A stretch of 32,000 bases of DNA from Trichodesmium erythraeum IMS101 (GCF_000014265.1 NC_008312.1:2940001-2972000), one strand, 5' to 3'; shown: positions 3,982 to 32,000, numbered from the stretch's first letter. Translations and numbers: made by a program. Notes: generated by a model not told the origin, from the letters alone.

Positions 3982-4013
3982 TTCACTTGAAGAGAAAAAT
4001 ATGTTCAACTACC

Positions 4014-4132: not shown

Positions 4133-4186
4133 AGCAAGGCTGCTAATATATATAGTTAAATCCAAACCCAAATCCAAGTTATTTCA

Positions 4187-10771: not shown

Positions 10772-10894
10772 TCAAATTTTTCAGTCATTAATTATCAGTA
10801 AATATTCTAATTGGATATCTCCAAAATCAGAGTTAATATTGATGTTAATATTATCGAAAAATTTGTTTAAAGCTATATAATAATGACTTAAATT

Positions 10895-12805
10895 TGAGAA
10901 TATTTAATAACCACCCGAAAGAAATAAAAATATTTATTGGTTTTACTGAGCCGGCTGTTTCAAAAATTCAGATAAGGTCTTCAAGTTTTAGCCGAAAATA
11001 CAAAATGGAAATAGCTGAAGGAGAAAAATGATTAATTACAGCAAAAGGCGATAGAAAAAAAATTAAAATTCGAGTGACTCAGGCATTAGAATATCTCAAT
11101 AACTATCCGAAAGAAATAAAAATATTTATTGGTTTTACTGAGCCGGCTGTTTCAAAAATTCAGATAAGGTCTTCAAGTTTTAGCCGAAAATACAAAATGG
11201 AAATAGCTGAAGGAGAAAAATGATTAATTACAGCAAAAGGCGATAGAAAAAAAATTAAAATTCGAGTGACTCAGGCATTAGAATATCTCAATAACTATCC
11301 GAAAGAAATAAAAATATTTATTAGTGTTACTGAGCCGGCTGTTTCAAAAATTCAGATAAAGTCTTCAAGTTTTAGCCGAAAATACAAAATGGAAATAGCT
11401 GAAGGAGAAAAATGATTAATTACAGCAAAAGGCGATAGAAAAAAAATTAAAATTCGAGTGACTCAGGCATTAGAATATCTCAATAACTATCCGAAAGAAA
11501 TAAAAATATTTATTAGTGTTACTGAGCCGGCTGTTTCAAAAATTCAGATAAGGTCTTCAAGTTTTAGCCGAAAATACAAAATGGAAATAGCTGAAGGAGA
11601 AAAATGATTAATTACAGCAAAAGGCGATAGAAAAAAAATTAAAATTCGAGTGACTCAGGCATTAAAATATCTCAATAACTATCCGAAAGAAATAAAAATA
11701 TTTATTAGTGTTACTGAGCCGGCTGTTTCAAAAATTCAGATAAAGTCTTCAAGTTTTAGCCGAAAATACAAAATGGAAATAGCTGAAGGAGAAAAATGAT
11801 TAATTACAGCAAAAGGCGATAGAAAAAAAATTAAAATTCGAGTGACTCAGGCATTAGAATATCTCAATAACTATCCGAAAGAAATAAAAATATTTATTAG
11901 TGTTACTGAGCCGGCTGTTTCAAAAATTCAGATAAAGTCTTCAAGTTTTAGCCGAAAATACAAAATGGAAATAGCTGAAGGAGAAAAATGATTAATTACA
12001 GCAAAAGGCGATAGAAAAAAAATTAAAATTCGAGTGACTCAGGCATTAGAATATCTCAATAACTATCCGAAAGAAATAAAAATATTTATTAGTGTTACTG
12101 AGCCGGCTGTTTCAAAAATTCAGATAAAGTCTTCAAGTTTTAGCCGAAAATACAAAATGGAAATAGCTGAAGGAGAAAAATGATTAATTACAGCAAAAGG
12201 CGATAGAAAAAAAATTAAAATTCGAGTGACTCAGGCATTAAAATATCTCAATAACTATCCGAAAAAAATAAAAATATTTATTAGTGTTACTGAGCCGGCT
12301 GTTTCAAAAATTCAGATAAAGTCTTCAAGTTTTAGCCGAAAATACAAAATGGAAATAGCTGAAGGAGAAAAATGATTAATTACAGCAAAAGGCGATAGAA
12401 AAAAAATTAAAATTCGAGTGACTCAGGCATTAAAATATCTCAATAACTATCCGAAAGAAATAAAAATATTTATTGGTGTTACTGAGCCGGCTGTTTCAAA
12501 AATTCAGATAAAGTCTTCAAGTTTTAGCCGAAAATACAAAATGGAAATAGCTGAAGGAGAAAAATGATTAATTACAGCAAAAGGCGATAGAAAAAAAATT
12601 AAAATTCGAGTGACTCAGGCATTAGAATATCTCAATAACTATCCGAAAGAAATAAAAATATTTATTGGTTTTACTGAGCCGGCTGTTTCAAAAATTCAGA
12701 TAAAGTCTTCAAGTTTTAGCCGAAAATACAAAATGGAAATAGCTGAAGGAGAAAAATGATTAATTACAGCAAAAGGCGATAGAAAAAAAATTAAAATCCG
12801 AGTCG
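10895..12805. repeat. 192-bp tandem repeat, about 10 units, starting about 125 nt after the giant gene's stop codon
   Basis: ccgaaagaaataaaaatattt occurs at 10915, 11107, 11299, 11491, 11683 ... (exact 192-bp period). Units are near-identical with a few variant positions (ggtttt/agtgtt/ggtgtt; aggtct/aagtct; tagaat/taaaat). The track has no ORF of 60 aa or more here. Confidence 0.97.
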
Positions 12806-12887
12806 GAAATAATATTAAATTTATACTATTTAGGTTATATTTTGACGTTCATTTACTCATTTTTTTGGGAAATTTTGGCAAATATAA

Positions 12888-13380
12888 TTTACTAATATCT
12901 ACGCCATAAATGCGTGCTTTTATATTTTTTTTGCTCCTATTAATAATGATATTTTATATATTATTAGTATTTTTATTTTATCTATCATTTTTTATCAAAT
13001 TTTTCAATAATTTTTTGATTAAAAACTAACAACAAAAAACAGTAAATTAATTTTTTTGTGTGTAGCGATCGCTATAATATAGCACCATATAAATACTAAT
13101 ATATACGCCATAAATATGTGATTTTATATTTTTTTGCTCCTATAAATAATTTAGTTTATATATATAAAATTTATTTTTTTTGATGTTATTTTTTAGTAAA
13201 TTAGCCAATAAATTTTTGAGTAAAAACTAACAGAAATAAACAGATAATTATTTTTTTCCTGTGGAGCGATCGCTATTAATAGTATTATATCAGTGTTTCT
13301 ACTTACTCCTTAAATGTGTGATGCTGCATTTGTTTTTGCTGCTATAAATTTTGATATTGATATTATATATATAACTATAG
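12888..13380. repeat. Degenerate ~201-204-bp tandem repeat, about 2.5 copies, extremely AT-rich, each full copy ending in a HIP1 site
   Basis: The following segments align: tactaatatctacgccataaatgcgtgcttttatatttttt..gctcctattaataat (12890), tactaatatatacgccataaatatgtgattttatattttt..gctcctataaataat (13094) and tacttactccttaaatgtgtgatgctgcatttgttttt..gctgctataaatttt (13301). HIP1 sites lie at 13065 and 13266. Confidence 0.8.
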
Positions 13381-13428
13381 TCTAACTGACTTGCAGTTTA
13401 GTGCAAATCTCTATTTGTTAGATAAAGA

Positions 13429-13472
13429 GGAGTTGGTGAAGGCTAAACCTTCACCAACTCCCCTCCTATTTT
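13429..13472 (+). terminator. Strong hairpin (14-bp perfect stem, 5-nt loop) followed by a T-rich tract; candidate plus-strand intrinsic terminator or structured RNA element
   Basis: GGAGTTGGTGAAGG (13429-13442), loop ctaaa, then CCTTCACCAACTCC (13448-13461), followed by cctcctatttta. No annotated gene lies upstream on the plus strand other than the repeat arrays. Confidence 0.5.
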
Positions 13473-14634
13473 AGGTTTATTATTGATAAAAAAAATACTT
13501 TAAATACTCTTGAAAATATGACAAAAAAGGGTTAAAAATCAAACAAAAAAAACAATAAAAATGAAATATTGGATAATTATTGAGGCTAAAAAAAGCAGAA
13601 ATTAATTATCGCAATATAGTTTAAATATTTAAAAAAAATTATATTTTATATCAGTCTATTAAACTGTAAAAATATCAGAATAATCAGCTTTTTTTTATCA
13701 CAATTAAATCTACAAAATTGCCGAAAATACATACAAAATTTTTTAGGATTAAAACAATTTATTTTACCTATATTCTGATTTTTTTAGTCAATATTCTGAT
13801 AAGAAAATGCTTTTATTTCAATCATAAGTAGTATTAACTTTAGATATAAACTAGTGAAAAAATATCAATATATTAATAATAAGTGTAGTTTAGAAAAAAA
13901 GAACATTATCTATATACTAAAACAATTAAGTTATCAATATCCAAGTAATATAACAGAACAACAAGGAGTAATTCGTCATATTTTAAGATTATTGAAAAAA
14001 TTTAACTAATTTTAGTAATAGATAGGAAATTACATAGTATCCATCTATCATGTTGGTTAAAAAATTATCCTCAAAAATATCTATACTTTCCATTTCTACA
14101 AAAAAACGAAATTAAGGGTGCTAGTAAATATTGTAAACTCGAGAAATTAAAAGTAAAATTTGGCTAAAAAAATTATTATTAAATCAAAAAAAATAAAAAA
14201 ATCAAGCAAGTCTTTCTATGCAATTTGTTGATATATAAAAAGCGCAAAATTAACCAGAAAAATATATCAAAACCTAGTAAATTATTAGTAATTTATTTTC
14301 GCTAGATAAAATTAATAAAGTATATAGTCAAAAAATAGAAATCAAGGATATGTTTGAAAAAATGTAATAATTGAAATTACAATTTTGAATAAGCAAAAGC
14401 AAACAAAAAAAATGAAATAATTTTATTGTAGTTTTATTCAATAATAGGTAGAGAATTTAGTACATTACATTCTCATAAGCTACCCTATTATCGAAAAGGA
14501 ATTAAAGCTATCTCAAAGATTAATACTCTGTAGAATCGTTTTCTTGTTTTTTTCTTGAATTATCAACTCTTTTTTATAATCTTTTTAAGAGCATTTAGAG
14601 TATTTTTTTTGAATAAATAATCAACTAAAATAGA

Positions 14635-14671
14635 GGGGAGTTTTTGAAAGCGAAGGGTTCACCAACTCCCC
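14635..14671 (+). repeat. Diverged second copy of the 13429 hairpin element (shared right arm TTCACCAACTCCCC)
   Basis: GGGGAGTT-tttgaaagcgaagggttcacc-AACTCCCC. The right arm gttcaccaactcccc closely matches cttcaccaactcccc at 13449-13463, and the left arm is partly mutated. Confidence 0.4.
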
Positions 14672-14959
14672 CTTATTAAAAATAAGCTTTCCATTGGACT
14701 TGAATTACTATTCAGCTTAACCTGTAAATTCCTTGAGATATTTATTTTCCAGCTAGCTTGTCACCCCGTGATCATTTTTACTTAATGTATGGGTATGAAA
14801 TGATTGTTATACTTTTTAGTTTAAGTCTTTACAAGCCAACAAGTCGAAAATAATCATTAAATTAAAAAAAACTACTAAAAAGTCGCTTTTCTAGGGCAAG
14901 GCTTCAAACCAAGTTTTTTGGTAATATATTATTGTTGATAAGCTAAAACTTAAGCAAAT

Positions 14960-15835
14960 ATGGCTCTAACAAAAACACAACTAATTGGTTTAAAAGCAAA
15001 TCATTTTCGGCATCCCTTAGATCTAGAGGCAACAAATGCTTTGAAGCAACTTCCTGGTATAGACCTCTTAGTTAGACAGTTGTTAAGTCCATTAGGTGAG
15101 CAATTTTTCTATATGGAAAATATTGCTTCCAGTGTTCTCGTCAGTGAAGCACAACTGCCAAATTTACACAAAACACTATTAGACGCTTGTCAAGCACTTG
15201 ACATAGAACCACCCCAATTATATATTCGTCAAAATCCTGTACCTAATGCTTATACATTTGCTATGCGAGGGAAGCAACCTTTTATTGTTGTTCATACATC
15301 TCTAATAGAGTTGCTCAACTTAGAGGAGATCCAAGCAGTATTAGGTCATGAGCTAGGACATCTTAAATGTGAGCATGGAGTATATCTTACCCTAGGTAAC
15401 TTAATTGTACTTGCTGCTGGACAAATTTCGACATGGGGTGGCATAATAGCCCAAAGCTTACAAAGCAAAATACTAGAATGGCTAAGATGTGCCGAATTTA
15501 GTTGTGATCGCGCAGCCCTACTGGCCACACAAAATTCTCAAGTAGTTGTATCAGCTTTGATGAAGTTAGCTGGTGGTTCTCCAACAATATCACCTCAACT
15601 TAATGTAGATGCTTTTTTAGCTCAGGCAAGAGCTTATAATGAACTTAGTAATACAGAAGTTGGTGAAGTATTAAAGGAAGTCCAAACGGCTCAACTAACT
15701 CATCCTCTACCTGTATTGAGGGCCAAAGAAATTGATATGTGGGCAAGTAGCAAAAAATATCAGGATATATTGCAAAATTTAGCAAAAGATGTGTATAATA
15801 ATCAAAGGATTAAGGGCGGGTGGCGAAATTGGTAG
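14960..15835 (+). CDS. M48-family zinc metallopeptidase (HtpX/Ste24-like)
   Basis: 291-aa ORF with HExxH at VLGHELGHLKCEH. It shows the context typical of cyanobacterial M48 peptidases (FAMRGKQPFIVVHTSLIELL..EEIQAVLGHELGH...EFSCDRAALL). The last 22 nt overlap the tRNA gene. Confidence 0.85.
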   Translation: MALTKTQLIGLKANHFRHPLDLEATNALKQLPGIDLLVRQLLSPLGEQFFYMENIASSVLVSEAQLPNLHKTLLDACQALDIEPPQLYIRQNPVPNAYTFAMRGKQPFIVVHTSLIELLNLEEIQAVLGHELGHLKCEHGVYLTLGNLIVLAAGQISTWGGIIAQSLQSKILEWLRCAEFSCDRAALLATQNSQVVVSALMKLAGGSPTISPQLNVDAFLAQARAYNELSNTEVGEVLKEVQTAQLTHPLPVLRAKEIDMWASSKKYQDILQNLAKDVYNNQRIKGGWRNW

Positions 15836-15895
15836 ACGCACCACACTCAAAATGTGGCGACTTCGGTCGTGAGAGTTCGAGTCTCTCTCCGCCCA
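15814..15895 (+). tRNA. tRNA-Leu (anticodon CAA), 82 nt, no encoded CCA
   Basis: Hand-folded cloverleaf:
- acceptor GGGCGGG/TCCGCCC (one G-U pair)
- D arm GCG-AAATTGGTAGA-CGC
- anticodon stem CCACA/TGTGG with loop CT-CAA-AA
- long variable arm CGAC-TTCG-GTCG
- T arm GAGAG-TTCGAGT-CTCTC
- discriminator A. Confidence 0.92.
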
Positions 15896-16693
15896 TAACA
15901 GTTGACTATATAGTTTTAGATTTCTAAGTAGGGTTCAGAATATGGCAAAATATATGAAAAGATTGGAGTATTTTAGTCAATAAAGGGGAAATATTAAAGT
16001 TAAGTCAGCAAATTATCTGCAAGATTAGCGCAAAATTTAAAATTAGGTTGAATAGTTAATAAAAAGGGAACAACAAATAAATAGTTCCTTTTTATTAATA
16101 GATTCGGTGGATTAACAACTTCTAAATAATCTCTAAATATTTATTTGCTTTTCCTATATATTTGACTAGTAATAATCTACAACTAGTGTTTTTTATTTAA
16201 ATTCCTTATATTGAAAGGTTTTTACTGATAAAGATCACTATACCTATAGAATTACCCTTTGACTTTTTCTATTAGGACAAACAGTCTCTCTAACCTAATC
16301 AGTTCATTGCTGTTACTCCTACTAATTATTAAGAATTTCTTCTAACTCAGTTTTTAAGTTTTCCCATGATTCTATTAAAAAATTAGATATTAGACTTTAC
16401 TGATTAATTTATGCCGAACCTTTCTACCAAGTAATTAACCTTTATCTATGATGACCAAGATTTCAGCAATTTTCCTTAAGCTTAAACCTAAATAACTAGG
16501 ACTGTTAGAAAAACCCAGTCTATCAAGCACCGAATATTTAAACAAATGATAACTAATTTAGAAAGTTCTGCATTTAATGCAAGTCAACCATTATCATAAT
16601 AGAGCACTTAATAGAGCGGGAATATTCGTAAATTAAAAGGTCACTAATAGCAACTACTTGGGTAATTTTTCTAGACTATAAATTCTTTCTAAT

Positions 16694-16987
16694 CTAAGGA
16701 AGATGTTTTTTATTTATATTTAGAATTGGTAGTTGTGGACGAGACGAATTAGGAGGCAAATAATATTCTGGAACAGCACTAGATTGCTCAATATGAGAAC
16801 CCTTGAGCAGATAGAGGCGTAATATAATGGCAACTCCTACAGTTCCCATTCCTAGAAAAAATAAAGACCAACTTGATTCGACACCTCCAATGACGGCATC
16901 AACTGCTCCCATTGTCACTACAAAGCTGACTACTGGATCTTTTCGATAAGCTGTTTTAAGAATTTTTAGCCATAAAGCATTGATCAT
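16694..16987 (-). CDS. Small hypothetical membrane protein (97 aa, two predicted TM helices)
   Basis: ORF with two hydrophobic stretches, VVSFVVTMGAVDAVIGGV and SLFFLGMGTVGVAIILRLYLL, and a Pro-rich tail. No family recognised. Confidence 0.5.
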   Translation of the reverse strand: MINALWLKILKTAYRKDPVVSFVVTMGAVDAVIGGVESSWSLFFLGMGTVGVAIILRLYLLKGSHIEQSSAVPEYYLPPNSSRPQLPILNINKKHLP

Positions 16988-17063
16988 AAGCTTAATTTAG
17001 TACAAAATAGATTTTCAGTATACTTATTTATTTGACGTAAGGAGATTGACACTCTCCCGACGC

Positions 17064-17879
17064 TTATCCTACAAGACATTTGCGGAAAATTCCCAATTCA
17101 TCAATATTAAGGGCTTTCTGCTTCATCGTACTTGCCCTCCGAGATTTACTCTCTTCAGGTCTTACAGTCGCGACCCAGACTGACACTGCCTGTCCGGTAG
17201 CCAAAATGTTTATACTTGCGTTTAGATAACTATCATGGTGACTAGCGCTTTCAGGACAGTCCCATTGTCTAATATTTAAAGATAATTTTTCTACTATATG
17301 AATACAATTAGAGTAACGTTTAGAACTAGGAAAATATCTGTCAATTTTTATTAATGTACGACTATACCATTGAGCTTTGTATTCTAATTGCTTCACTAAT
17401 TCTCCCCAATTAGCATCACTTATTGCTATCGTACTGGGTATACAACCTAGTAGTAATTGCCTGCTCCATCTAATATATAATTGTTCTGCATACTTAGCTA
17501 AATAGACTTGACCATCTTTACATTTGAAGGCTGACTTTGTAAACGTAGCACTACCAACATTTCTTTTTTTCTTGGAATTAGGATATTTAGTATGTCCACT
17601 AAAAAGGTTATTAGAAGCCGTTTTTAAATATCTTAAGCTTTGCTGTAATACTACACTGCTTACTTCAGGGAGAAAACTTAAATATTCCGGTTTTTTCCAA
17701 GAAGTCAATATAGCTGAAGTTTGTTTATAGCTCACTCTTTCTGGGTGTTCATGCCAAGCTTGAGTTCTAGTTGCTAAAGCTTTGTTGTAGATGAGGTGTA
17801 TACAACCCAAAATCCTCAGCAACAGAATTTCCTGCTCTGGAGTTGGATAAAATCTAAATTTGTATGCTTTTTGGACCAT
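17064..17879 (-). pseudogene. tnpB: Decayed TnpB (IS200/IS605-family OrfB, RNA-guided nuclease family) with a large internal deletion
   Basis: - N-terminus MVQKAYKFRFYPTPEQEILLLR..GC...IYNKAL is the classic TnpB start.
- C-terminal ISDANWGELVKQLEYKAQWYSRTLIKIDRYFPSSKR.SNC.H matches the TnpB RuvC-II/zinc-finger region.
- Only 271 aa against about 400 expected. The segment between ..PSTIAI and SDANWGE (RuvC-I and central region) is missing.
- Zinc-finger cysteines are replaced (YSNCIH, CPESA) and HDRDxNA reads HDSYLNA. Confidence 0.8.
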
Positions 17880-18557
17880 CTACTGCTTAACTTTTAATAT
17901 TTAAATTTTAGAATATTTTTTGTAAGAACACAACATTGATTGGTTTTCATCTCAAAGCTCCCTTAAAGGAGAGCGCGGGTCTTTAAGCAAAATTGATATA
18001 AAGCTTAAAGTCTCATTCCTTTAATCTTAAATTATGTAGACTTACAGTTATAAACTATACTAAATATGAAAATTTAAATTAGTTCAAAGCATAATTATAT
18101 TGCTTTCTATATTTATTAATCATGCAGATGTTTAGATCAAATAATTTTCAGTATTCAAAGTAATTTTGGGAATTACAATAGTTAATAGTTATAAGTATAA
18201 ATTATAGAAATACTATTTATTATAGTACTGTTTTCTTATTTTATCACTGTAAGATTCATTATACTTAACTGCTTAATAATTGAAAAAATATTCAAAAAGC
18301 TTGTTATATAAAAAAATTGTAGCTATTGGAAATCAAACATAATAATTATTGCTTCTGTGTTTACTTGAACAATTTTTGTTACCTCTATTTAGCAACAACT
18401 TTCTTAAAGTTAAGCTGGTTTGTTTTTGAGCTATATGTTATAATATAAAAAATATTAAACTCAGGGCAATTTTTGATAATATGTAGTCTTAATTTGTACA
18501 TATAATTAATTATTGCTTACTCTAGAGATATTGTGCATTATAATTAAATATTGGAAA

Positions 18558-18603
18558 GTTGTTGGTCAACTTTATGATCAAAATACTTGAGCTGACCAAC
18601 AAC
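18558..18603. other. 11-bp inverted repeat (GTTGTTGGTCA ... TGACCAACAAC) with 24-nt spacer, about 85 nt downstream of hli
   Basis: Seen directly at 18558-18568 and 18593-18603. The long loop and weak T tract make it only a possible terminator. Confidence 0.3.
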
Positions 18604-18688
18604 AATCCTGTAAAAAATTAGAGGTAGACTCTAGCTTTAATATCTATTATAATATATATTTAAAAACTTAATGTAGATATTCAGAGCC

Positions 18689-18859
18689 CTAATTGAGACC
18701 CAACCAAGAGAGCAAACCTTCTCCAGTAAAGTATTCGATTGCTAAAGTCAATACAAAACCAATCATTGCTGCTCTACCATTCAGGCGTTCTGCGTACTGG
18801 TTAAACCCAAATTTTGGCTCATCCAAGTTAGGTGTATTAGTAGGTTGTGGTTGTTTCAT
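18689..18859 (-). CDS. hli: High-light-inducible protein (HLIP / one-helix CAB-like protein), 56 aa
   Basis: Below the ORF-track size cutoff. The reverse strand reads MKQPQPTNTPNLDEPKFGFNQYAERLNGRAAMIGFVLTLAIEYFTGEGLLSWLGLN*. FGFN.YAE..NGR.AMIGF......E is the chlorophyll-binding HLIP/CAB motif. Confidence 0.88.
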   Translation of the reverse strand: MKQPQPTNTPNLDEPKFGFNQYAERLNGRAAMIGFVLTLAIEYFTGEGLLSWLGLN

Positions 18860-19028
18860 TATCAATTGGCCTTAAAATTAATAGTGTTTGCAAATAGAGT
18901 TGTTTGTTTATAATTATTAAGTATATTTTAAAAGGAGTCGACCCAGTGTCAATATCTCTGTGCAAAAATTTTAGCGAGAGAGTCGAGAAGCTCCACAATT
19001 AAAGTTTTCACCGAAAAATTTGGTAAGT

Positions 19029-19595
19029 ATGTCAAATTCATTAGACTCCCCTTCTTCCTTACCACCTGCAGTCGAACAAGTAGCCAAAGCTCTGCGACTA
19101 GGTGGATGGATTTGTTTTTGGGTACAACTTGTCCTCGGTATGGTTTCAGGTATAATTTTTATTTTTGCTGTAGGTTTACTAAGCCAGAATACTGGAGCTG
19201 GCACAGGAGGTGGACTATTTTTTGCAGTTTGTAGTCTTGTGGTACTAGGATTCAGTATTTTCTTGTCATTTCGGTATACCCGCTTAGCAAGGCAATTGCG
19301 ATCACAAATATCTTCTTTAAGGCCAAGCAGGGCAGATACAACTCAAAAAGTAAAAAGGACTTTAATTATTAACTTAGTTGGGATGAGTCTAGCTTTATTA
19401 GGAGGAGAAGCAATTGGAGGTATTTTATTAGGCAAATCCTTAGTGAGTAAGTCATTTGTATTTAACCCTACAGAACTAGAAAAATTTACACTAGATATTT
19501 TTATACTCTTGGGTAATACTCACATAATTGTAGCTCATTTTATTGGGATTATAGTAGGGCTATTTTTGCTTGATAGGGTTTACAACAAGCAGTGA
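19029..19595 (+). CDS. Four-TM membrane protein, DUF3611-like (family containing plant TIC21/PIC1 homologues)
   Basis: The track ORF starts at TTG 19020; the first ATG is 19029. Four hydrophobic helices are present (GGWICFWVQLVLGMVSGIIFIFAV, LFFAVCSLVVLGFSIFLSF, LIINLVGMSLALLGGEAIGGILLG, HIIVAHFIGIIVGLFLL). The RLGGWI.FWVQLVL start is as I recall for this conserved cyanobacterial family. Confidence 0.65.
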   Translation: MSNSLDSPSSLPPAVEQVAKALRLGGWICFWVQLVLGMVSGIIFIFAVGLLSQNTGAGTGGGLFFAVCSLVVLGFSIFLSFRYTRLARQLRSQISSLRPSRADTTQKVKRTLIINLVGMSLALLGGEAIGGILLGKSLVSKSFVFNPTELEKFTLDIFILLGNTHIIVAHFIGIIVGLFLLDRVYNKQ

Positions 19596-20959
19596 AGTTG
19601 ACAATAGTTTTCTATTTTGGATATCCTCAAAACTATCTTGAAAGCCTACGATAATATGAATATTTTTTTTAGTGATTGATTGCCTCAGTAGTCTTAATTA
19701 TTAATCACTTCTATAGAAAAATATTTTGAGAGACAATGCACATTGGTAGAAGAAAAGTATATTAATAATGGATATATCAACTTGATAGCTTTTTACCCAA
19801 TCCTAATCTCTCTAAAAACTAAATTTGTTTGTAGATTGCTCAAGAATTGTATAACCTTATTCTCAACTTATACTCTCAGGTTTTTTAGGAAAGTTTTCTC
19901 TTTCTTGTTATGACTGACTGTGTCGGGTCAAATCTCTCGGAGGGTTCGTTATAGTTACTTACCATTAGCACTCATTCATTTGTTAAGTTTGAGTAGGTTT
20001 AGTAGTTTGCTGGTTTGGTGGTATGGAGCAAAGATAGTTAGTAGGTTTGCTGATAGGGAGCAAAGATAGAAAATTATTGAAGTAAAAACTTATTGAGAAA
20101 AACCCGGGCTAAAATTGATGCATTTGGTAGTAAGGTATTATCAATTTTTTAATTCTTTAACTCTTAACCTGAAACCTGAAACCTGAAATATGATATCTTA
20201 AATCAACAACGAATTCTATTTTATAGAAACTCGGAATTATATCCTATATTCGAGTAGTTACTGACTGAATATTTCATATCCTAGAGAGTTTATTACCTAC
20301 CTTCCTTCGTGTTTGTGAATGTATCAGTTTGAGTTGGAGGTATTGTTTCTGGTAACTGGTATTTTCCCGGGGTTTAATTTAACTTCAGAGATTGATGTTC
20401 AGTTACTATTCTGTGGACTATGCTGTCAACCCAACAACAGAACAGTATAAGATTTCAGCCTACTTGGTCATAAGAGTTATTTATAAGTCGAGGTTGTCCT
20501 GATATATTGATTTAGAACGGTCATTTATATCCTAATTACAGGTGTTGTAGCTAATGGGTAGTACTTTGAAGTTAGTATTATACCAAATCCGCTTTAATAA
20601 GAAGATAGATATTTACAAAATTCAAAACTCTTGCTTAACAAAGATTTGGGTATCTATACCACTTTTAGTTATTAATCCGGAATCAATACTAACTCACAGA
20701 ATAAATTACTTAGATTACTCCTATTAAGTAAAAATAGAACTACAACCATAGCCATGGAATTTAAACTTGCATCTAGCTATTTTTTTTACATATCTTCGAT
20801 AAAATCTGATAATGGATAGATCGAGATAGTTAGCGATCGCTACCCACTCAAATTAAAATCGAAGTCAAAAGCAAAAATAGTCAAGTTTACAGTCTTATAT
20901 TCAGAAACTTAAAATAGGAAAAATTAATCTCCAAAAATAAAAGTCAGGTTCAATAAAAC

Positions 20960-25522: not shown

Positions 25523-25670
25523 TAGGGAGAAAACAGGGAATCATAAACGCACCTCATAACTGGGGGAATTGCTATATAAGTATTAAAATTCTTTAATAAA
25601 TTACTTTTGACTTATGACTTTTTAGTTGCCCGTAGCCTTATAATTTCCTCAAAAAAATCAGGAAAAGTTA

Positions 25671-26024
25671 TCAAAAAGTTGAACTATTCCAACCCCAAAG
25701 ATAACCTTGAGCATCAGAAAATTCTATATAGATTCGATTTTTAGGAACCCCGAGAGTTTTATTAATTTGTTCACAAAAATCTTGACTCATTTCTTTGGTT
25801 TGGTTAGGCTTCATACTACCAATACTTTTAATTTCTATGTAGCAAGTCGGCTCATCACTATTTCCACCAAAAGTCATGGGAATATCAGATTCAAAGGCTG
25901 TCATTACGTAAGATTCTGATTTACTAAAATGCTTGGCCATACTAGATGAAAGTTGTTTGAGAAGGTTGTCAATTTTATCTTTTTCTAGTTGGGCAACGGA
26001 AGTTTTGACTTTGATTAATGGCAT
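25671..26024 (-). CDS. MIF / tautomerase-superfamily protein (macrophage migration inhibitory factor-like), 117 aa
   Basis: Start moved to M19 of the track ORF so that the product begins MPLIKVKTS (catalytic Pro-1). It aligns by eye with MIF: ..MTFGG.S.P.CYIEIKSIG......N...S...C..I...LG.P..RIYI.F.D.....WGWN.STF. Confidence 0.8.
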   Translation of the reverse strand: MPLIKVKTSVAQLEKDKIDNLLKQLSSSMAKHFSKSESYVMTAFESDIPMTFGGNSDEPTCYIEIKSIGSMKPNQTKEMSQDFCEQINKTLGVPKNRIYIEFSDAQGYLWGWNSSTF

Positions 26025-26150
26025 AGTTCGATTAATAGTTGAGGATGAACAAAATAAACTATTTACGTAGGTCTTCAATTATAAAAGTTAACTAATCAAT
26101 TGTCTATAATAGACCTAAAGAAAGGAAGGGAAAACACATAGAAAAAATAT

Positions 26151-26789
26151 ATGAATATCAAACGGGCATTGAAAAGTATAACTAAGGGAGTTTCGACCTT
26201 TGCTGGACCTCTGGGGGCTCCTTTTGAAGCATTGCTATATTTCGTTGAGGATAAACAAACACAAGAGCGTGAGGCTCAACTAGATGCAATGATCTTTGAG
26301 GTACAAAGTTTGAACCGTGAAACTCTTGAGGAGATATTTCAAGCTAGAGAGGAAATTAAGGAATTGAGGGCACAATTTATTTTGGCAATGGAAATTTGTT
26401 TTTCTATTTTAGCTGAAAACAGGAAATTGTTGTTTAGTCCAGATTTAGAACAAAATCTTCCTTTTTTTATTGAACCATATAAGGAACGGTTGGAAGCAAG
26501 TGGGTTGATTACTAATGATGTTTTGGCTGATGCACTTTATCATTGTTATGAAAAAGATGCTCGACTTTTTTTAGCACATATTTCTGCTGATTTTCCTGTG
26601 GGAGAACTTCGTAGTTATGAGGCTTTACCTGTTATTATTTCTGATTTTTTAACAAGATTTTCTGGTCAGGGATTAAATCAACAAGCTAAAATATTTAAGA
26701 CTTTAAGTAAGAAAAATCCAGGTAGTAGACCTTTAAGGGTAAAAAGCTTGATGCTTCAAGAACAAGTGATTAATCAAATAGGGAAGTGA
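26151..26789 (+). CDS. Hypothetical 212-aa protein: hydrophobic/amphipathic N-terminus, coiled-coil, C-terminal adaptor-like helical module shared with the next gene
   Basis: ORF 10 nt upstream of the next gene.
- N-terminus: KGVSTFAGPLGAPFEALLYFV
- Coiled-coil-like: QEREAQLDAMIFEVQSLNRETLEEIFQAREEIKELRAQ
- C-terminus: YEKDARLFLAHISADFPVGELRSYEALPVIISDFLTRFSGQGLNQQAKIFKTLSKKNPG, which parallels residues ~35-97 of the 1204-aa protein. Confidence 0.7.
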   Translation: MNIKRALKSITKGVSTFAGPLGAPFEALLYFVEDKQTQEREAQLDAMIFEVQSLNRETLEEIFQAREEIKELRAQFILAMEICFSILAENRKLLFSPDLEQNLPFFIEPYKERLEASGLITNDVLADALYHCYEKDARLFLAHISADFPVGELRSYEALPVIISDFLTRFSGQGLNQQAKIFKTLSKKNPGSRPLRVKSLMLQEQVINQIGK

Positions 26790-26799
26790 GAAAATATTT

Positions 26800-29700
26800 A
26801 TGCCTAGTGAGTTTGAAAAGGTTCTAGACGAGATTAGAAAACGAAGTAGTAAATATGAAGATATTGGAGATGTTAAGAGGGAAATTATTAATGCGCTTTC
26901 ACAAAGATATAAAACACAGGAACGTTTGTTTACACATTATGTTCTAGAAAAAGGGGGATTTGATATTCGTAAATTAACTTTAAGTGACCCTCTGCTAGTA
27001 ATTATATCTGATTTTTTTAATCAGTGTAATGGTCTAAACAAAAACGAATTATATAAATTTTTTAGAGTGTTATATGATGAAAATAAAGGTATTAGTTTGC
27101 TAAAAGAAATTAGAGATACACTTGTACAATTTAAACATCAAAGTACTGATACTCCTACATATACACCATCACCATACATATCAGTTATTACTTCAGAAGC
27201 AATAGGCTTAGTAGAAGCAAAATATGGACAGTCTCTAGAACAGGGAAAAAACTTTGCTAAAAAAGTTGATTGTAATAATTTTCAGGATGTACAAGCTTTT
27301 TTTAATAATGGGGGACAAGCTGGTAAACAGCTTGCTATTTTGGAGCCAGGAACCTATTACATTAACCCCGAAATATTCACTATTCGTACAGTTCCTATTA
27401 TTAGGATTCTTCAAGGAGAAATAGGACTGGTAATAGCCAATGAGGGGACTTTTAAGTCTGATGAACAAACGTTAGGTAGAGTGGTGGAATGTGATAACTT
27501 TCAGGATGCTGAAGCATTTCTGAAAAATGGAGGACAAAAAGGTAAGCAACTTGCTATTTTGACTGACGGTGACTATAAAATTAACACTGATTTCTTTAGC
27601 GTAATTACTACTACTAATGCCTATAAATATAATGAAAATCCAAATAATTTAAAGGTTTATAAAATCGACAAAGATAAAATTGGTATTTTAACTACGATGG
27701 TTGGGAAAATTCTCCCTAAAGGTGAAATTGCTGGACCAATAATTGAAGGACACGATAATTATCAAAATGCACAAAAATTCCTAGATTTAGGAGGATATAA
27801 AGGATTGCAAGAAGAAGTTCTCCAAGAAGGAGCCTGGAGTCTAAATCCTTGGTTTGTTGAAGTTGAGCAGGTACCACTAACTAGAATTGAGCAAGAAGAG
27901 GTGGGAGTTGTTATATCTTTTGTTGGAAAAGAATATGACAAAAATTATGATCAACAGCCCATTTTTTATGGTGCAGAAAAGTCTCTATACCAATTAGTTC
28001 CAAAAGGGTACAAAGGAGTTCAAAAAGAACCTCTTACTGCTGGTCAATATGCAATTAATACCAGAGTAAAAACGGTCAAATTAGTGCCAACTACCCAAAT
28101 TATACTGAATTGGTCAGATCAGAAAAAACATCCCTTAAATTATGACTATGAACTGAAACAAATGAAGCTAATTTCTAGAGACCATTTTGAAATTTTTGTT
28201 CAGTTTACCCAAATTATTCGTATTGCTGCTGAGAATGCTCCTAAGATGATTTGTATGGTTGGATATTATACAGGGGAAGACAAAATATATGTTACTGATG
28301 ATTCTGGGCAAGTTGTTAAGAAATATGCAGTTATTAGAAATTTAGTTTCTCGTGTATTAACAAAAGTTGTTTATAGTCATTTTCAACAAGCTGCTACTGG
28401 TAAAACGGCAATACAGTTTCTAAACACAAGAGGTGACTCTCAAAAGGAGGCCGAAAATTATATAAAAACACTTCTTGAAATGATTGGTGTTGAAGGATGT
28501 GGCACTTTTATGGTTGATACAGTTAATCTACCTCTAGTAGTTGATTCTTACTTACAAGAGAAACAAAAGCAAGAGGCAAGAGAAGCTCAAGCAAAAGCTG
28601 CACCTGAACGGCTTCTTGAACCTGAATTTGTTGAGAATCCTGAACAACGGCTTCCTGAACCTGAATTTGTTGAGAATCCTGAAAACCGTTGTCCCATTAT
28701 CCTCCTACTGGATACATCTTACTCAATGTCAGGAGAAGCTATTACTGAATTAAATCAAGGAGTGAAAATATTTCAGGCAAGTGTAAAGGAAGATGAACTG
28801 GCTTCCTTAAGAGTAGAAATAGCTGTCATTACTTTTAACAGTGAAATTGAAGTAGTTCAAGATTTTGTTACTGTAGATAAATTTATTCCCAAAACATTAG
28901 AAGCATCAGGAGTAACGCACATGGGAAAAGCTATTGAAAAAGCCCTAGAATTATTAGAAAAGCGAAAACAAGACTACAAAAATAGCGATATTCAATACTA
29001 TCGACCCTGGATCTTTCTAATTACTGATGGGCAACCTACTGATACTTGGCAAGATGCAGCAAAAAAAATAGAAGAAGCTGAAACTAATAGAAAATTACTT
29101 TTTTTTGCTGTTGGGGTAAGAGATGCAGATATGGAGACATTAAGTGAAATTTCTGTATGCCCTCCTAAAAAACTCAACGGCTTAGATTTTCAATCTTTGT
29201 TTAAATGGCTAAGTTTTTCACTTCAGCAAGTTTCAGTTAGCAAGATAGGAGAAAAGAATAGACTTCCTCCAACGAATGCATGGGAAGAAATAACTAGTAA
29301 AAATCAAAATACTAAACAGACTCAACAAACTCAACAAAAGACAACAATTCCTAATTCTGACCCTAATCCTGAACCAATTATCCCTATCTTAGTTTTAGAT
29401 AGAGATATTTTTAAAGATCAACGAATTAAGAGTAATTCGGAGGGAGAAATTTGGATAACTCAAAAATATCGCTACCGAAAGAAATACCTAATAAAAATTT
29501 ATTATGAAGTTACACCAGCAAGGATAAAAAAGTTAGAAGTAATGGTAGCTTATAAACCGAAAAATTTTCATGGTTCTCAACAAGCGTGGGCTTGGCCTGA
29601 GTATTTACTAGCAGATAAAACAGGAAAAATTATCGGCTTTGTCATGGAATTTATTGAAGATAGTAAACTGCTATTTAATATTTATAATCCTCAGCGTCGT

Positions 29701-30414
29701 AAGCAAATAAATAGTCAACTCCACTGGTCAGTAGACTGGCTTTTTCTTCACCATACTGCTAAAAATATTGCTACTATTATTCAGTCTCTTCATAGTCAGG
29801 ATTATGTTATTGGAGATATGAAGCCACAAAATATTCTAGTTAACCGATATGCTTCTGCTTCAATAATTAATACAGACTCATTTCAAGTTCGCCATCCTCA
29901 GACAAAAGAAATCTATCATTGTTTAGTTGGTTCCGAAGAATTTACCCCTCCTGAACTATTAGAAAAAGAATTAGCAAAAATTGTTCAAACTCCTACCCAT
30001 GATAACTTTAGATTAGCCCTTATTATCTATCATTTATTATTTGGAGGACATCCCTTTAAAGGAAGGTGGATAGGAACAGAAGAGCCACCCAAAATTGATG
30101 AACTCATCCGACTAGGTTTCTGGTGCTATGCTCCCAATAGTAAAATTCTACCAGGACCGAGAACTATTCCCCTTGAAATAGTTCACCCCAAAATTCAAAA
30201 ATGCTTCCAAAAATGCTTCAACGATGGACACTATCATCCAGAAAAACGACCCACTCCTCAGAACTGGGTTGACGCTTTAGAGAGTGCCATTAATGATTTA
30301 GTACAGTGTAAAAGAGTTGATACCCATTGGTATAGTAAAACTTATGGCAAATGCTATTGGTGCGAAAGAGAAGAAAAATTAGAGGTTGACATATTTTCTG
30401 ATTCCAAAACATAA
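26800..30414 (+). CDS. 1204-aa multidomain protein: N-terminal adaptor-like module, repeat-expanded SPFH/band-7-like region, TerY-type vWA domain, Ser/Thr protein kinase (YegI-like) with C-terminal Cys/His knuckle
   Basis: - 26800-27129: helical module homologous to the C-terminus of the upstream ORF.
- 27265-27990: three repeats of (V/I)(D/E)C.NFQD..AF..NGG..GKQ..IL..G.Y.IN...F.
- about 27860-28554: SPFH-like core (EQEEVGVVISFVGKE; LTAGQYAINTRVKTVKLVP; ISRDHFEIFVQFTQIIRI; IRNLVSRVLTKVVYSHF..A.GKTAIQFLNTR; IKTLLEMIGVEGCGTFMVDTVNLP).
- 28690-29250: vWA with MIDAS DTSYSMSG (D638), ITDGQPTD and FKWLSFSL, as in TerY.
- 29400-30300: kinase with YLIKIY (Lys), VIGDMKPQNILV (D1006/K1008/N1011), NTDSFQV (D1026) and EFTPPEL.
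- Tail: C..(5)..H..(9)..CYWC. Confidence 0.85.
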   Translation: MPSEFEKVLDEIRKRSSKYEDIGDVKREIINALSQRYKTQERLFTHYVLEKGGFDIRKLTLSDPLLVIISDFFNQCNGLNKNELYKFFRVLYDENKGISLLKEIRDTLVQFKHQSTDTPTYTPSPYISVITSEAIGLVEAKYGQSLEQGKNFAKKVDCNNFQDVQAFFNNGGQAGKQLAILEPGTYYINPEIFTIRTVPIIRILQGEIGLVIANEGTFKSDEQTLGRVVECDNFQDAEAFLKNGGQKGKQLAILTDGDYKINTDFFSVITTTNAYKYNENPNNLKVYKIDKDKIGILTTMVGKILPKGEIAGPIIEGHDNYQNAQKFLDLGGYKGLQEEVLQEGAWSLNPWFVEVEQVPLTRIEQEEVGVVISFVGKEYDKNYDQQPIFYGAEKSLYQLVPKGYKGVQKEPLTAGQYAINTRVKTVKLVPTTQIILNWSDQKKHPLNYDYELKQMKLISRDHFEIFVQFTQIIRIAAENAPKMICMVGYYTGEDKIYVTDDSGQVVKKYAVIRNLVSRVLTKVVYSHFQQAATGKTAIQFLNTRGDSQKEAENYIKTLLEMIGVEGCGTFMVDTVNLPLVVDSYLQEKQKQEAREAQAKAAPERLLEPEFVENPEQRLPEPEFVENPENRCPIILLLDTSYSMSGEAITELNQGVKIFQASVKEDELASLRVEIAVITFNSEIEVVQDFVTVDKFIPKTLEASGVTHMGKAIEKALELLEKRKQDYKNSDIQYYRPWIFLITDGQPTDTWQDAAKKIEEAETNRKLLFFAVGVRDADMETLSEISVCPPKKLNGLDFQSLFKWLSFSLQQVSVSKIGEKNRLPPTNAWEEITSKNQNTKQTQQTQQKTTIPNSDPNPEPIIPILVLDRDIFKDQRIKSNSEGEIWITQKYRYRKKYLIKIYYEVTPARIKKLEVMVAYKPKNFHGSQQAWAWPEYLLADKTGKIIGFVMEFIEDSKLLFNIYNPQRRKQINSQLHWSVDWLFLHHTAKNIATIIQSLHSQDYVIGDMKPQNILVNRYASASIINTDSFQVRHPQTKEIYHCLVGSEEFTPPELLEKELAKIVQTPTHDNFRLALIIYHLLFGGHPFKGRWIGTEEPPKIDELIRLGFWCYAPNSKILPGPRTIPLEIVHPKIQKCFQKCFNDGHYHPEKRPTPQNWVDALESAINDLVQCKRVDTHWYSKTYGKCYWCEREEKLEVDIFSDSKT

Positions 30415-30429
30415 CATTCCCTTGAAAAA

Positions 30430-30837
30430 TTGCTTCAAAATAAAAAGTGGAAAGAAGCTGATTTAGAAACTAAATATATTATGCTAAAGTTTGCAGGAAG
30501 AATTGATCAAGGATGGTTAGATAAATCATCCCTAGAAAATTTCCCGACTAAAGTTATTCTTCAAATAGATCAACTTTGGCGACAATATTCTGATGAACGT
30601 TTTGGCTTTGCTACACAGAAGCGTATCTATTTAGAAACTGGTAATAAATTAGAACAAATAAATTGGGAAACCTATAATCATTTTGGTGAAAAAGTTGGTT
30701 GGCGAGAAGGGGGAATGTGGAAAAATTACTTCGATCTAGAATTTTCTCTGAATTCACCAGAAGGTCATCTTCCATTCTGTTGTGCTGGTTTTAATGTTTG
30801 CTTCATTGCTCATCTAGCCCTTCTGAAAGACTTATGA
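30430..30837 (+). CDS. GUN4-like porphyrin-binding domain ORF, in the same frame as the kinase ORF and separated from it by one TAA; no ATG at the domain start (possible detached or pseudogenised C-terminal domain)
   Basis: KKWKEADLETKYIMLKFAGRIDQGWLDKSSLENFP..VILQIDQLWRQYSDERFGFATQKRIYLETG......W..F...VGWREGGMWKNYFDLEFSLNSPEGHLPF is the GUN4 domain pattern. The track start is TTG, and the first ATG (residue 18) would truncate the domain. 30430-26800 = 3630, which is divisible by 3. Confidence 0.6.
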   Translation: MLQNKKWKEADLETKYIMLKFAGRIDQGWLDKSSLENFPTKVILQIDQLWRQYSDERFGFATQKRIYLETGNKLEQINWETYNHFGEKVGWREGGMWKNYFDLEFSLNSPEGHLPFCCAGFNVCFIAHLALLKDL

Positions 30838-31193
30838 TCATCTACATGAATCTTTGATTTTCTCTAAATAATCAGTTCTATTCCTGCTTCACCTCGGCAA
30901 CCTCAGCGTTCTCTCAAAATCTATAATTTTCTATATAAACTTTCAATTATAGTTATCGTAGTGGAAAATCTTCATATCTTAGGAAGAATATCATATCCGA
31001 ATCATCAGTGATCAAAAAGTTTTTGTTTGTAGTAAAGCGATCGCCTTATTCGCCGTAAGTGCTAATTCTCTCCTCCTGCTTTCTGCCTCCCGCCTTACCT
31101 CCTCCAAAGTGTAAGTATTGAACCTAGAGAGCGAATGCCATGTAGAGGGCGAATGCTAGAAAACCCCCACTAGATATGGGGTTTGTGTGTAAG

Positions 31194-31446
31194 CCCTATA
31201 AATTAACTACTTATTTGACTCTTAACCACAGACAAATAGTAATAGAAGACTTAAATGTATCGGGAATCTCAAACTGTTGATTTGTGTTGCAGTCTTTACT
31301 GTTATCAGAACTTGTTTTCAATTGCAAACACTGCAATTAAAGCTCGTGAGCGATACTTGAATGCAGCCTTAAATTTAGCTACAGTTAGTCAGTTCATTCC
31401 GTGTGCCTGTGAACTAGATCGCACCGACATTGCCAGAATAAAGTAG
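31194..31446 (+). pseudogene. tnpB: Fragmentary TnpB (IS200/IS605 OrfB) remnant with frameshifts and stops
   Basis: 31194-31277 reads PYKLTTYLTLNHRQIVIEDLNVSGISNC* (TnpB RuvC-II motif IxxEDLNVxGM). Further on, other frames give ELVFNCKHCN* and ARERYLNAALNLATVS (zinc-finger CxxC and RuvC-III D.D.NAA.NL). Confidence 0.65.
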
Positions 31447-31598
31447 GAACAAAAATAGATCAAAAATCAGATAATGATAGATTTTATGAATTTTTTGTAG
31501 ATTTCTGGGAACGGAATGAACTTGCCAAAATTGTGGTGCACACCATGACCGCCAGACACTAAATTAAAATTATAGCGCTAGTCTTTCGGTAATTTTAG

Positions 31599-32000
31599 CT
31601 AGCCACCATAATTCCAGCCTGTATTTTCTAATAACAGAGGATCTCCCTCACGATGCACACCTGCTGCAATTACTTCTCCTACATACACAGTATGATCCCC
31701 TTTTTCGACAGCACCCATAACTCTACATTCAACATAGCCAAGAGTATCAGAAATAATTGGACAACCAGTTTCCCCCAAATAAAATTCTACCTCTTCAAAT
31801 TTATTTCCCACACGACGTTGAGGTTTGAAAAACTGTTGAGCTAAATCTTTTTGCTCTGCTCCTAAGAAACTAAGGGAAAATACTCCACTAGTCTTAATCA
31901 TGGTATGGGATATAGAAGATTTATTAACACAGTTAACAATTAGGGGAGGCTTAAAAGATGCTTGCATTACCCAACTAGCTGTAAAGCCGTTTACTTCATC
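31599..32000 (-). CDS. Flavin reductase-like (FMN-binding split-barrel) domain protein, 5' end outside the window
   Basis: The frame stays open upstream of the track's Met to position 32000 (DEVNGFTASWVMQASFKPPLIVNCVNK...). NG.TASWV.Q.SF.PPL..V.V.K, F.G..Q..L...F and A..EC.V......GDH..YVGEV are typical of flavin reductase domains. It could be stand-alone or the C-terminus of a flavodiiron protein. Confidence 0.8.
   Translation of the reverse strand, partial: DEVNGFTASWVMQASFKPPLIVNCVNKSSISHTMIKTSGVFSLSFLGAEQKDLAQQFFKPQRRVGNKFEEVEFYLGETGCPIISDTLGYVECRVMGAVEKGDHTVYVGEVIAAGVHREGDPLLLENTGWNYGG

Follow-up and report, generated by a model that had tools for sequence, protein, structure and literature searches.

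A fused SPFH, vWA and kinase reading frame in Trichodesmium erythraeum, probably a deletion chimera from a conserved cyanobacterial island

Introduction

The TerY-P triad, represented in Escherichia coli by YegL, PphC (YegK) and YegI, combines a vWA protein, a PP2C phosphatase and a Zn-ribbon kinase; its proposed role is that of a phosphorylation switch that senses metals and has links to defence systems (eLife 2024 PMC11090510). YegI is dephosphorylated by PphC (bioRxiv 10.1101/303594), and its catalytic loop reads VGDxxQxS (bioRxiv 10.1101/819920). Kinases and caspases that carry a fused GUN4 domain have been described for cyanobacteria (Kaur et al., eLife 2020 PMC7159879; eLife 2021 PMC8195603). 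Here we analyse a stretch of 32,000 nucleotides of Trichodesmium erythraeum IMS101 (GCF_000014265.1 NC_008312.1:2940001-2972000; the window), in which a single open reading frame (ORF) joins an SPFH-like region, a TerY-like vWA domain and a kinase. An earlier note made from the DNA alone (the sequence-only reading) had taken this ORF for a fused TerY-P module with no phosphatase partner. Comparison with sister alleles and related loci leads us to consider it, with good confidence, a chimera that arose as a conserved cyanobacterial island lost DNA by stepwise deletion, that is, a derived and probably disabled variant of the known TerY-P system.

Results

The open reading frame and its domains

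On the plus strand, 26800..30414 is one continuous ORF of 1204 amino acids (aa). The fused polypeptide had been placed at 27202-30414; the fusion within one ORF stands, and position 27202 turns out to be internal. Pfam hidden Markov models recognise three domains, all above the gathering scores: Band_7 (PF01145; aa 363-600) with 39.3 bits against a cut-off of 23.6, VWA (aa 633-789) with 53 bits, and Pkinase (aa 945-1155) with 42.9 bits against a cut-off of 31.7. This result bears out the SPFH-like, vWA and kinase calls of the sequence-only reading and assigns the middle region to SPFH and not to another family. Its claim of a soluble SPFH part agrees with the absence of any transmembrane (TM) segment in the 1204-aa protein, where the best Kyte-Doolittle mean over 19 residues (KD19) is 1.35. 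NCBIfam gave no score near any cut-off, and PADLOC returned only generic kinase models (PD-T4-6, mad6, MkoA, PglW), with none for the vWA, the PP2C or the 212-aa protein described below. Two parts had been missed: a GUN4 domain that lies in frame behind the terminal TAA, and the domain at aa 1-128, which recurs in the 212-aa ORF immediately upstream. The features are listed here; handles such as L001 denote the related loci and contigs used for comparison.

26151..26789, plus strand: 212-aa ORF, the conserved first gene of the island; its aa ~125-191 are a copy of the N-terminal adaptor domain of the chimera
26800..30414, plus strand: chimeric ORF, comprising adaptor domain, three SPFH-like repeats, SPFH core, YegL-like vWA and YegI-like kinase with a Zn-ribbon-like motif, ended by a TAA stop
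26800..27183, plus strand: segment 1 (aa 1-128), adaptor-like all-alpha domain, derived from the N-terminus of the adjacent protease-GUN4 gene
27184..27885, plus strand: three SPFH-like repeats of ~73-86 residues each (aa ~129-362), recognised by staggered BLASTP hits and a ~73-aa period in relatives
27886..28599, plus strand: SPFH/Band_7 core (aa 363-600, Pfam), truncated soon after the domain, with the ~190-residue coiled coil and vWA1 absent
28651..29301, plus strand: YegL/TerY-like vWA, termed vWA2 (aa 618-834), with an intact metal ion-dependent adhesion site (MIDAS; DTSYSMSG ... TDG, in LITDG), matching the 234-aa vWA gene of L001
29395..30411, plus strand: YegI-type Ser/Thr kinase (aa ~866-1204) with a C-x5-H-x8-C-x2-C Zn-ribbon-like end; K899, D1006, N1011 and D1026 retained
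29437..29439, plus strand: Ser880 codon TCG, in place of the invariant Gly of the family loop SGEGE[IV]W
29869..29871, plus strand: Asn1024 codon AAT, in place of the family-invariant Asp (GAT), the first Asp of D-[ST]-D
30412..30414, plus strand: TAA nonsense codon; TAC (Tyr) in L001, L019, L021 and L015, and TAA also in L025
30430..30837, plus strand: GUN4 remnant ORF of 135 aa from TTG (Pfam GUN4, E 1e-33, from model position 14), the in-frame continuation of the kinase ORF behind the single TAA

Segment 1 is 91% identical to a 164-aa ORF of L017 and 36% identical (E 1e-15) to aa 1-105 of a 611-aa protein of L002, which Pfam resolves into N-domain, TRADD-like_N, CHAT and GUN4. The adaptor-like domain (chimera aa 1-113) resembles the N-terminus of this TRADD-N/CHAT/GUN4 protein as well as the C-termini of the 212-aa ORF and of its 218-aa counterpart, the first gene of L002 (69% identical to the 212-aa ORF). 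The 212-aa ORF itself aligns with chimera aa 29-97 at a BLASTP E of 5e-8 and has no Pfam, NCBIfam or PADLOC match; the adaptor domain has no Pfam match at E<=1, and so none to a Pfam EAD model. An AlphaFold2 (AF2) single-sequence model of segment 1, built with no alignment, contains six helices at low confidence (pLDDT 61.5). The domain (the N-terminal 135 aa encoded in the window) occurs in none of the 120 best SPFH relatives.

The locus tag of the chimera is probably Tery_1917. This assignment follows from numbering alone, because the proteome supplement table of T. erythraeum IMS101 gives Tery_1915 for the neighbouring macrophage migration inhibitory factor (MIF) protein and Tery_1919 for the flavin reductase; the counts for Tery_1916 in that table are zero. 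Our literature text searches found no paper that mentions the Tery_1917 tag.

Three junctions where sister DNA breaks off

Alignment with related Trichodesmium contigs indicates that pieces of four ancestral genes make up the 1204-aa polypeptide and that three deletions, each preserving the frame, brought them together.

27181..27188 (~27183), plus strand: J0, in-frame fusion of the adaptor domain to SPFH repeats from the middle of their array
28607..28683 (~28650), plus strand: J1, SPFH C-terminus 'AAPERLL' joined to codon ~19 of a free-standing YegL-like vWA gene
29300..29310 (~29304), plus strand: J2, last sense codon of vWA2 joined to ~codon 37 of the kinase gene, with short A-rich microhomology

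For J0, L017 4061-5661 corresponds to window 25583-27183 (96%), which takes in the genes for MIF and the 212-aa protein together with codons 1-128 of the L017 164-aa ORF, and L017 7490-8890 corresponds to window 27186-28591 (87%), the distal repeats and core of the L017 SPFH gene. The 1.8 kb of L017 between the two matches is absent from the window; it corresponds to a loss of the remainder of the protease-GUN4 gene and, on the side of the SPFH gene, of the signal/TM anchor and initial repeats. For J1, L001 2254-2906 equals window 28652-29304 at 98%, and farther upstream than 28652 the window and L001 cease to match. Here the coiled coil, the SPFH gene's own vWA1 and about four genes are lost. 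The window carries a 39-nt tandem duplication at this junction (39 nt x 2; TRF); L016 has J1 without the duplication, and J1 is also present in L021 and L022.

For J2, the same L001 segment is followed by L001 4035-6729, which equals window 29304-32000, again at 98%. The loss of ~1.13 kb comprises the vWA2 stop codon, intergenic DNA, the whole PphC-like PP2C gene and the first ~36 kinase codons; the remaining length difference between L001 and the window in this region is due to NTK/QTQ repeat number. J2 preserves both reading frames, its boundaries are the same against L021 and L022, and L015 carries the same J2. Since near-identical DNA of sister alleles breaks off exactly at the junctions, and since the missing piece holds the PP2C gene, we attribute the present arrangement to deletion.

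Same-strand neighbours of one island are typical material for an assembly artefact, and close contigs do show the genes separate, so that one has to consider whether the contig is chimeric or whether neighbouring genes were run together by an overlooked stop or frameshift. We regard such an artefact as extremely improbable and rejected it. Gene calls on at least 23 contigs, assembled independently in different projects and with different assemblers (NCBI, ENA, Logan), give exactly this 1204-aa protein; one of these contigs is 7,750,108 bp long. Contig L004 is identical to the window over 12 kb. Furthermore, independently assembled contigs that are 4-5% diverged carry J1 (L016, L021, L022) or J2 (L015), and each junction marks a deletion on the kilobase scale and no mere single-base error.

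A graded series of alleles

The flanks of L001 are nearly those of the window: hetR, flavin reductase, a 90-aa ORF and the APS kinase gene are free of non-synonymous differences, and synonymous divergence (dS) over six flanking genes is at most 0.009. Between these flanks, L001 has three separate genes, in this order: one for a free-standing vWA of 234 aa, one for a PP2C_2 of 259 aa and one for a kinase-GUN4 of 572 aa. The Trichodesmium alleles are as follows.

Allele A (L001, L019): free vWA2, PP2C and kinase-GUN4
Allele B (L021, MAG_R01; L022): J0+J1 chimera, PP2C and a free 571-aa kinase-GUN4, motifs intact
Allele C (window; L015, St18_bin1): J2 in addition; in L015 the reading frame continues into GUN4
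L025: native SPFH-vWA1, a caspase-HATPase gene, PP2C and an unfused 416-aa kinase, without vWA2 and the two unknown-function genes
L017: a different deletion removed PP2C and the 5' end of the kinase; split genes

In L021, the chimera is open for 838 codons and is followed by PP2C and then by the 571-aa kinase-GUN4, which keeps Asp at the position of Asn1024; in L022, an SPFH-vWA2 fusion precedes PP2C. L016 (St19_bin1) also carries J1. Intermediate alleles, with J0, J1, PP2C and a free kinase-GUN4, thus survive. In L017 (GCA_000987385.1 LAMW01000154, 4630-13075), the 212-aa gene is split into 86 and 130 aa and the SPFH-vWA1 gene into 431 and 815 aa, and the protease gene is reduced to the 164-aa N-domain ORF and a 143-aa GUN4 ORF; the split genes could be real decay or draft-sequence errors. 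Judged by these alleles, the island is being dismantled in Trichodesmium along several independent paths.

Against L001, L021, L015 and L025, the vWA/kinase DNA (window 28651-30411) is several-fold more diverged than the flanks (dS 0.02-0.10 versus at most 0.009). The window's vWA2 is close to that of L001 (dS 0.02) and far from that of L021 (dS 0.10), despite the J0 and J1 common to the window and L021. The alleles look mosaic, consistent with recombination. An exact search of genome contigs for the J2 junction returned nothing, and a protein-seeded scan returned distant Kuenenia/Pirellulales kinases only; apparently, either the species representative lacks the J2 allele or the scan missed it.

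The missing phosphatase

The link to TerY-P drawn by the sequence-only reading is confirmed. The vWA2 is 51% identical to E. coli MG1655 YegL (E 5e-65), the kinase aligns with YegI at 31% identity over 324 aa, a stretch that takes in the C-x5-H-x8-C-x2-C end (BLASTP, E 7e-45), and the PP2C of the sister alleles is 33% identical to PphC (E 9e-44). The absence of a nearby PP2C, also noted before, holds over a wider range: tblastn with three PP2C queries found nothing significant in the whole window, including the 26.8 kb upstream of the ORF (best E 0.068), and the gene list of the window-identical contig L004 contains none within 10 kb downstream, so that no PP2C gene was seen just outside the window on that side.

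The implied design, a single chain that dispenses with a phosphatase, did not survive comparison. A PphC-like PP2C occupies the homologous position in L001, L019, L021, L022 and L025, exactly at the vWA/kinase junction of the window. The alignments thus show that the PP2C lay between vWA2 and kinase and that J2, the last deletion, took it out.

Cyanobacteria commonly have orphan PP2C genes, and an ordinary triad might therefore still operate by reversible phosphorylation with a PP2C encoded outside the window or elsewhere in the genome. We find this very unlikely. Besides the two searched flanks, the position of the cognate PP2C is known and is occupied by a deletion junction; none of the best 120 of 1323 PP2C_2 homologues (at least 48% identity) lies on the 7,750,108-bp contig; and the kinase carries a probable inactivating change regardless.

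State of the kinase

In an alignment of 118 relatives of the kinase, GD[IM]KPQN and IIDTDSFQ are at least 98% conserved. The non-RD loop IGDMKPQN pointed out by the sequence-only reading is therefore present, as a trait of the whole family (GD.KPQN). The reported lack of a Gly-rich loop is correct for this copy only in that the family has a loop, SGEGE[IV]W, whose invariant Gly is replaced here by Ser880; L001, L015 and L021 keep the Gly. The beta3 Lys899, the catalytic-loop Asp1006 and Asn1011 are retained as described (YegI K39 and D141 are essential: bioRxiv 10.1101/819920). The magnesium-binding D-S-F is also present, and the claim is nevertheless misleading, because the family motif is D-[ST]-D-S-F and its first Asp, which aligns with the DFG Asp, is Asn in the window. 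Residue 1024 is Asn (AAT) in the window and Asp in 118/118 relatives and in L001, L019 and L021; it aligns with the DFG Asp of PDK1 by phmmer and with the first Asp of the YegI 'DSD' by BLASTP. The YegI study equates DSD with DFG and found the motif indispensable, with D161G, S160F/D161G, K39D and D141N all inactive (bioRxiv 10.1101/819920). In addition, GUN4, fused to the kinase in relatives, is cut off in the window by TAC->TAA. Taken on its sequence, the kinase is probably dead or badly impaired, and phosphotransfer is presumably lost.

The distribution of the three lesions bears on their order. Asn1024 is also found in L015 and L025; Ser880 and TAA are common to L025 only. The L025 kinase is unfused and has Asn1024, Ser880 and TAA with PP2C present, so the three lesions are not consequences of the fusion. 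A simple story in which Asp1024Asn compensated for the loss of PP2C was rejected on the same grounds. The simplest order is probably kinase inactivation first, followed by loss of a phosphatase that had become useless. Since L015 has J2 and Asn without Ser880 or TAA, recombination or recurrence of changes has to be assumed as well.

The ancestral island

A search with the whole protein returned hundreds of cyanobacterial 'SPFH domain-containing' proteins (P0003-P0120 examined). Their plan is a signal/TM N-terminus, 5-11 repeats of ~73 aa, the SPFH core, a linker of 150-250 residues and a terminal vWA1; in intact members, the TM helix lies at aa ~80-110 with a KD19 of 2.5-3.4 (P0004, P0005, P0010, P0011, P0013, P0016, P0018). 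A kinase is absent from all of the best 120 SPFH relatives. A search with the C-terminal 384 aa returned free-standing kinases of 416-672 aa, mostly GUN4-fused and often with DUF4278, the kinase-GUN4 single proteins measuring 572-672 aa; none of the 120 best listed has a Band_7 or VWA Pfam domain. Members of this kinase family bear the JGI name 'helix-hairpin-helix protein with protein kinase domain'. Several kinase relatives lie on the same contigs as SPFH-vWA proteins.

The full island is co-directional and reads: small adaptor protein; caspase/CHAT protease with GUN4; TM-anchored SPFH-repeat, SPFH, coiled-coil, vWA1 protein; two unknown-function proteins (~330 aa and ~210-270 aa); vWA2; PP2C_2; DUF4278-kinase-GUN4. 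It is present in four other cyanobacterial loci.

L002, 3973-18256: full island
L018 (Nostoc), 4045-14637: full island
L023 (Microcystis), 8382-19332: full island
L024 (Symploca), 7997-20439: full island

Because the full island is seen in these four loci, we take the separate-gene state as ancestral and the fusion as derived. The island proteases are of the caspase/CHAT type, with or without TIR and TRADD-N, and integrase or partition genes often lie near the island. One unknown-function protein of the island, ~340 aa long (L001 348-1370), weakly matches ZorA models of PADLOC in their coiled-coil part (E 3e-7), and the protein of ~270 aa beside it has a sub-threshold OmpA-like Pfam match; the pair faintly resembles a MotA/MotB-like pair.

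Other features of the window

An ORF of the MIF/tautomerase family (25671-26078, minus strand) lies directly upstream of the island, a position kept in all Trichodesmium alleles seen. Farther upstream, a 2194-aa ORF (4187-10771, plus strand) consists of FG-GAP, Kre9/KNH-like Ig and Calx-beta repeats; its GC content is 0.42-0.46 against ~0.33 in the rest of the window, and its DNA holds internal tandem repeats with units of 147, 285 and 339 bp that are 87-95% identical. The ORF-free DNA before it holds a 98-bp unit, containing GCGATCGC, repeated 17 times head to tail at 96% identity (2306-3983). Positions 1307-1983 and 4007-4132 comprise a degenerate heptamer array (TAGGTTT)n with a 127-bp higher-order period and a strong GC skew (+0.57), and a short AATTCCCA-type array that stands just before the 2194-aa ORF. 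At 10897-12803, a 192-bp unit is repeated ~10 times at 98% identity within a very AT-rich stretch of ~4 kb (10772-14959) that has the lowest GC of the window (0.22-0.30) and no ORF of at least 100 aa. A 271-aa ORF at 17064-17879 (minus strand) has HTH_OrfB_IS605 and Cas12f1-like TNB domains and looks like a shortened TnpB/IS605 OrfB-type element.

Discussion

We propose that three deletions stitched together the adaptor domain of the protease gene, the distal SPFH repeats and core, vWA2 and the kinase. In this scheme, inactivation of the kinase would have made the phosphatase dispensable. With the phosphatase gone and the kinase probably dead or impaired, the reversible phosphorylation switch of the triad would no longer work, and the polypeptide would be a degenerating remnant, at most a scaffold with a usable vWA MIDAS site and an adaptor domain that could still pair with the 212-aa neighbour.

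Several observations weigh against a degenerating remnant and have to be set beside this proposal. First, the ORF has stayed open and all three junctions keep frame (1/27 by chance, for an ORF that was chosen for its length); coding indels between alleles are multiples of 3 in 4/4 cases; and the two J2-fused alleles show one stop among 87 differences, against ~4.8 expected from a stop-creating fraction of 5.5% (Poisson P about 0.05, our own arithmetic). Second, the ratio of non-synonymous to synonymous substitution rates (dN/dS, by Nei-Gojobori) amounts to 0.2-0.27 in the repeats and 0.36-0.4 in vWA2, less than 1 in both cases, with small counts. For the kinase, dN/dS is ~1.0-1.2 between the window and every other allele; L001 and L021, unfused and motif-intact, give 1.03 for the kinase and 1.39 for PP2C. 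Because these are equally ~1, the high ratio is a property of the locus and not of decay after fusion, and we dropped dN/dS as a test of decay. Kinase and PP2C both evolve at a ratio of ~1, yet without frameshifts. Third, Asp1026, Lys899, Asp1006 and Asn1011 are intact in the kinase, and the Asp1024 change, predicted to be inactivating, may leave residual activity.

These observations could instead fit a functional, selected neo-gene, that is, a single-chain, phosphatase-free sensor with a YegL-like vWA as metal/ligand site and a pseudokinase or weak kinase on a soluble SPFH module. Here, after Asp1024Asn, the pseudokinase would have been kept tethered to the vWA and the soluble SPFH part, a Death-like adaptor would recruit the module to the 212-aa partner, and constitutive proximity would replace reversible kinase/phosphatase control. 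Such a gene would explain 1204 codons open in an AT-rich genome, the open intermediate chimera of L021, the low dN/dS in repeats and vWA2, and the retention of the MIDAS motif, most catalytic residues and the adaptor-domain pair with the upstream ORF; the J2 allele also persists in a ~5% diverged lineage (L015) with in-frame indels only and no stop. If it were true, alleles A, B, C and L025 would record the stepwise domestication of a kinase/phosphatase conflict module. We nevertheless hold it to be unlikely. All J2 alleles seen have Asn at the DFG-equivalent Asp, the window copy adds Gly880Ser and the nonsense codon before GUN4, and the unfused L025 has the same lesions, which therefore did not arise as adaptations to the fusion. 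The SPFH protein has lost its TM anchor and coiled coil, sister lineages lose the island piecemeal, and the architecture has been seen in Trichodesmium only, being absent from the best SPFH and kinase relatives described above.

Stepwise deletion thus remains our preferred account, with consequences for how the locus should be used. A single-chain TerY-P module that lacks a phosphatase would have pointed to a new design of signalling. The evidence indicates a deletion product of the known triad, specific to this lineage, and SPFH-vWA-kinase should not be treated as a bona fide domain architecture in databases. The value of the locus is that of an evolutionary record and of a pointer to the conserved full island. 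The living Trichodesmium alleles form a graded series, from the intact triad through the SPFH-vWA2 chimera with PP2C and kinase to the fully fused form, with other partial losses beside it. They offer a natural record of the decay of a kinase/phosphatase module, in which kinase-inactivating changes are already present in a PP2C-bearing allele. Moreover, the conserved seven-gene island of Nostoc, Microcystis, Symploca and relatives brings together a giant membrane SPFH-vWA protein, caspase/CHAT proteases tagged with GUN4, and a TerY-P triad in which the kinase bears GUN4 as well. The literature text searches that we made found no description of this SPFH-vWA, GUN4-protease and TerY-P combination; text searches of conflict-system papers of the Aravind group found no link of SPFH or TerY-P to GUN4/TRADD-N systems, and those of PMC7159879 and PMC8195603 found neither tied to EAD systems.

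Comparison with known systems

The KKP system of Pf prophages (Nat Commun 2024 PMC11341870) shares a Ser/Thr kinase restrained by a cognate phosphatase. The likeness is one of analogy only, and toxicity of the YegI-type kinase is hypothetical. KKP-type logic predicts that a phosphatase is lost only once its kinase is inactive, which is the order suggested by L025.

The adaptor domain recalls the effector-associated (EAD, Death-like) adaptors known, beside GUN4-tagged effectors, from conflict systems of multicellular bacteria: an alpha-helical terminal domain occurs in two neighbouring genes of one locus and, in relatives, is fused to a TRADD-N/CHAT protease. A pair of this kind is in line with the 'EAD principle' and behaves like the paired adaptors described by Kaur et al. 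(PMC7159879, PMC8195603). The domain differs in having no Pfam EAD match and a fold model of low confidence.

Among the cyanobacterial TM-anchored SPFH-repeat/SPFH/coiled-coil/vWA proteins (annotated 'YqiK/YegL' or 'SPFH domain-containing'), the closest members are 62-79% identical to chimera aa 129-600, and their overall order, SPFH then vWA, is re-created in the chimera. The native proteins have a signal/TM segment, 5-11 repeats, a coiled-coil linker of 150-250 aa and a terminal vWA1, all of which are missing or replaced in the window; the vWA1 of native proteins is ~42% identical to the window's vWA2, and the SPFH-vWA spacing is ~17 residues in the window against 150-250 in relatives. The SPFH part is soluble because the J0 deletion removed the TM anchor. 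It keeps the Band_7 domain of an SPFH scaffold, and since both the N-terminal membrane anchor and the oligomerisation coiled coil are absent, it would be unable to act as a membrane scaffold.

The closest described system is the E. coli YegL/PphC (YegK)/YegI triad. The window shares with it a vWA with MIDAS (DxSxS...T...D) and a YegI-type kinase with a Zn-ribbon-like end, a non-RD catalytic loop and a D-[ST]-D-S-F region, and the intact alleles share the gene order vWA, PP2C, kinase. The window differs in having no adjacent PP2C gene, in carrying vWA and kinase in one polypeptide and not as separable members of three products, and in the Asn at the DFG-equivalent Asp. YegI has a helix-hairpin-helix tail, where the cyanobacterial kinases carry GUN4 (often with DUF4278) instead, and the cyanobacterial triad sits in a larger island together with an SPFH-vWA protein and GUN4-tagged proteases.

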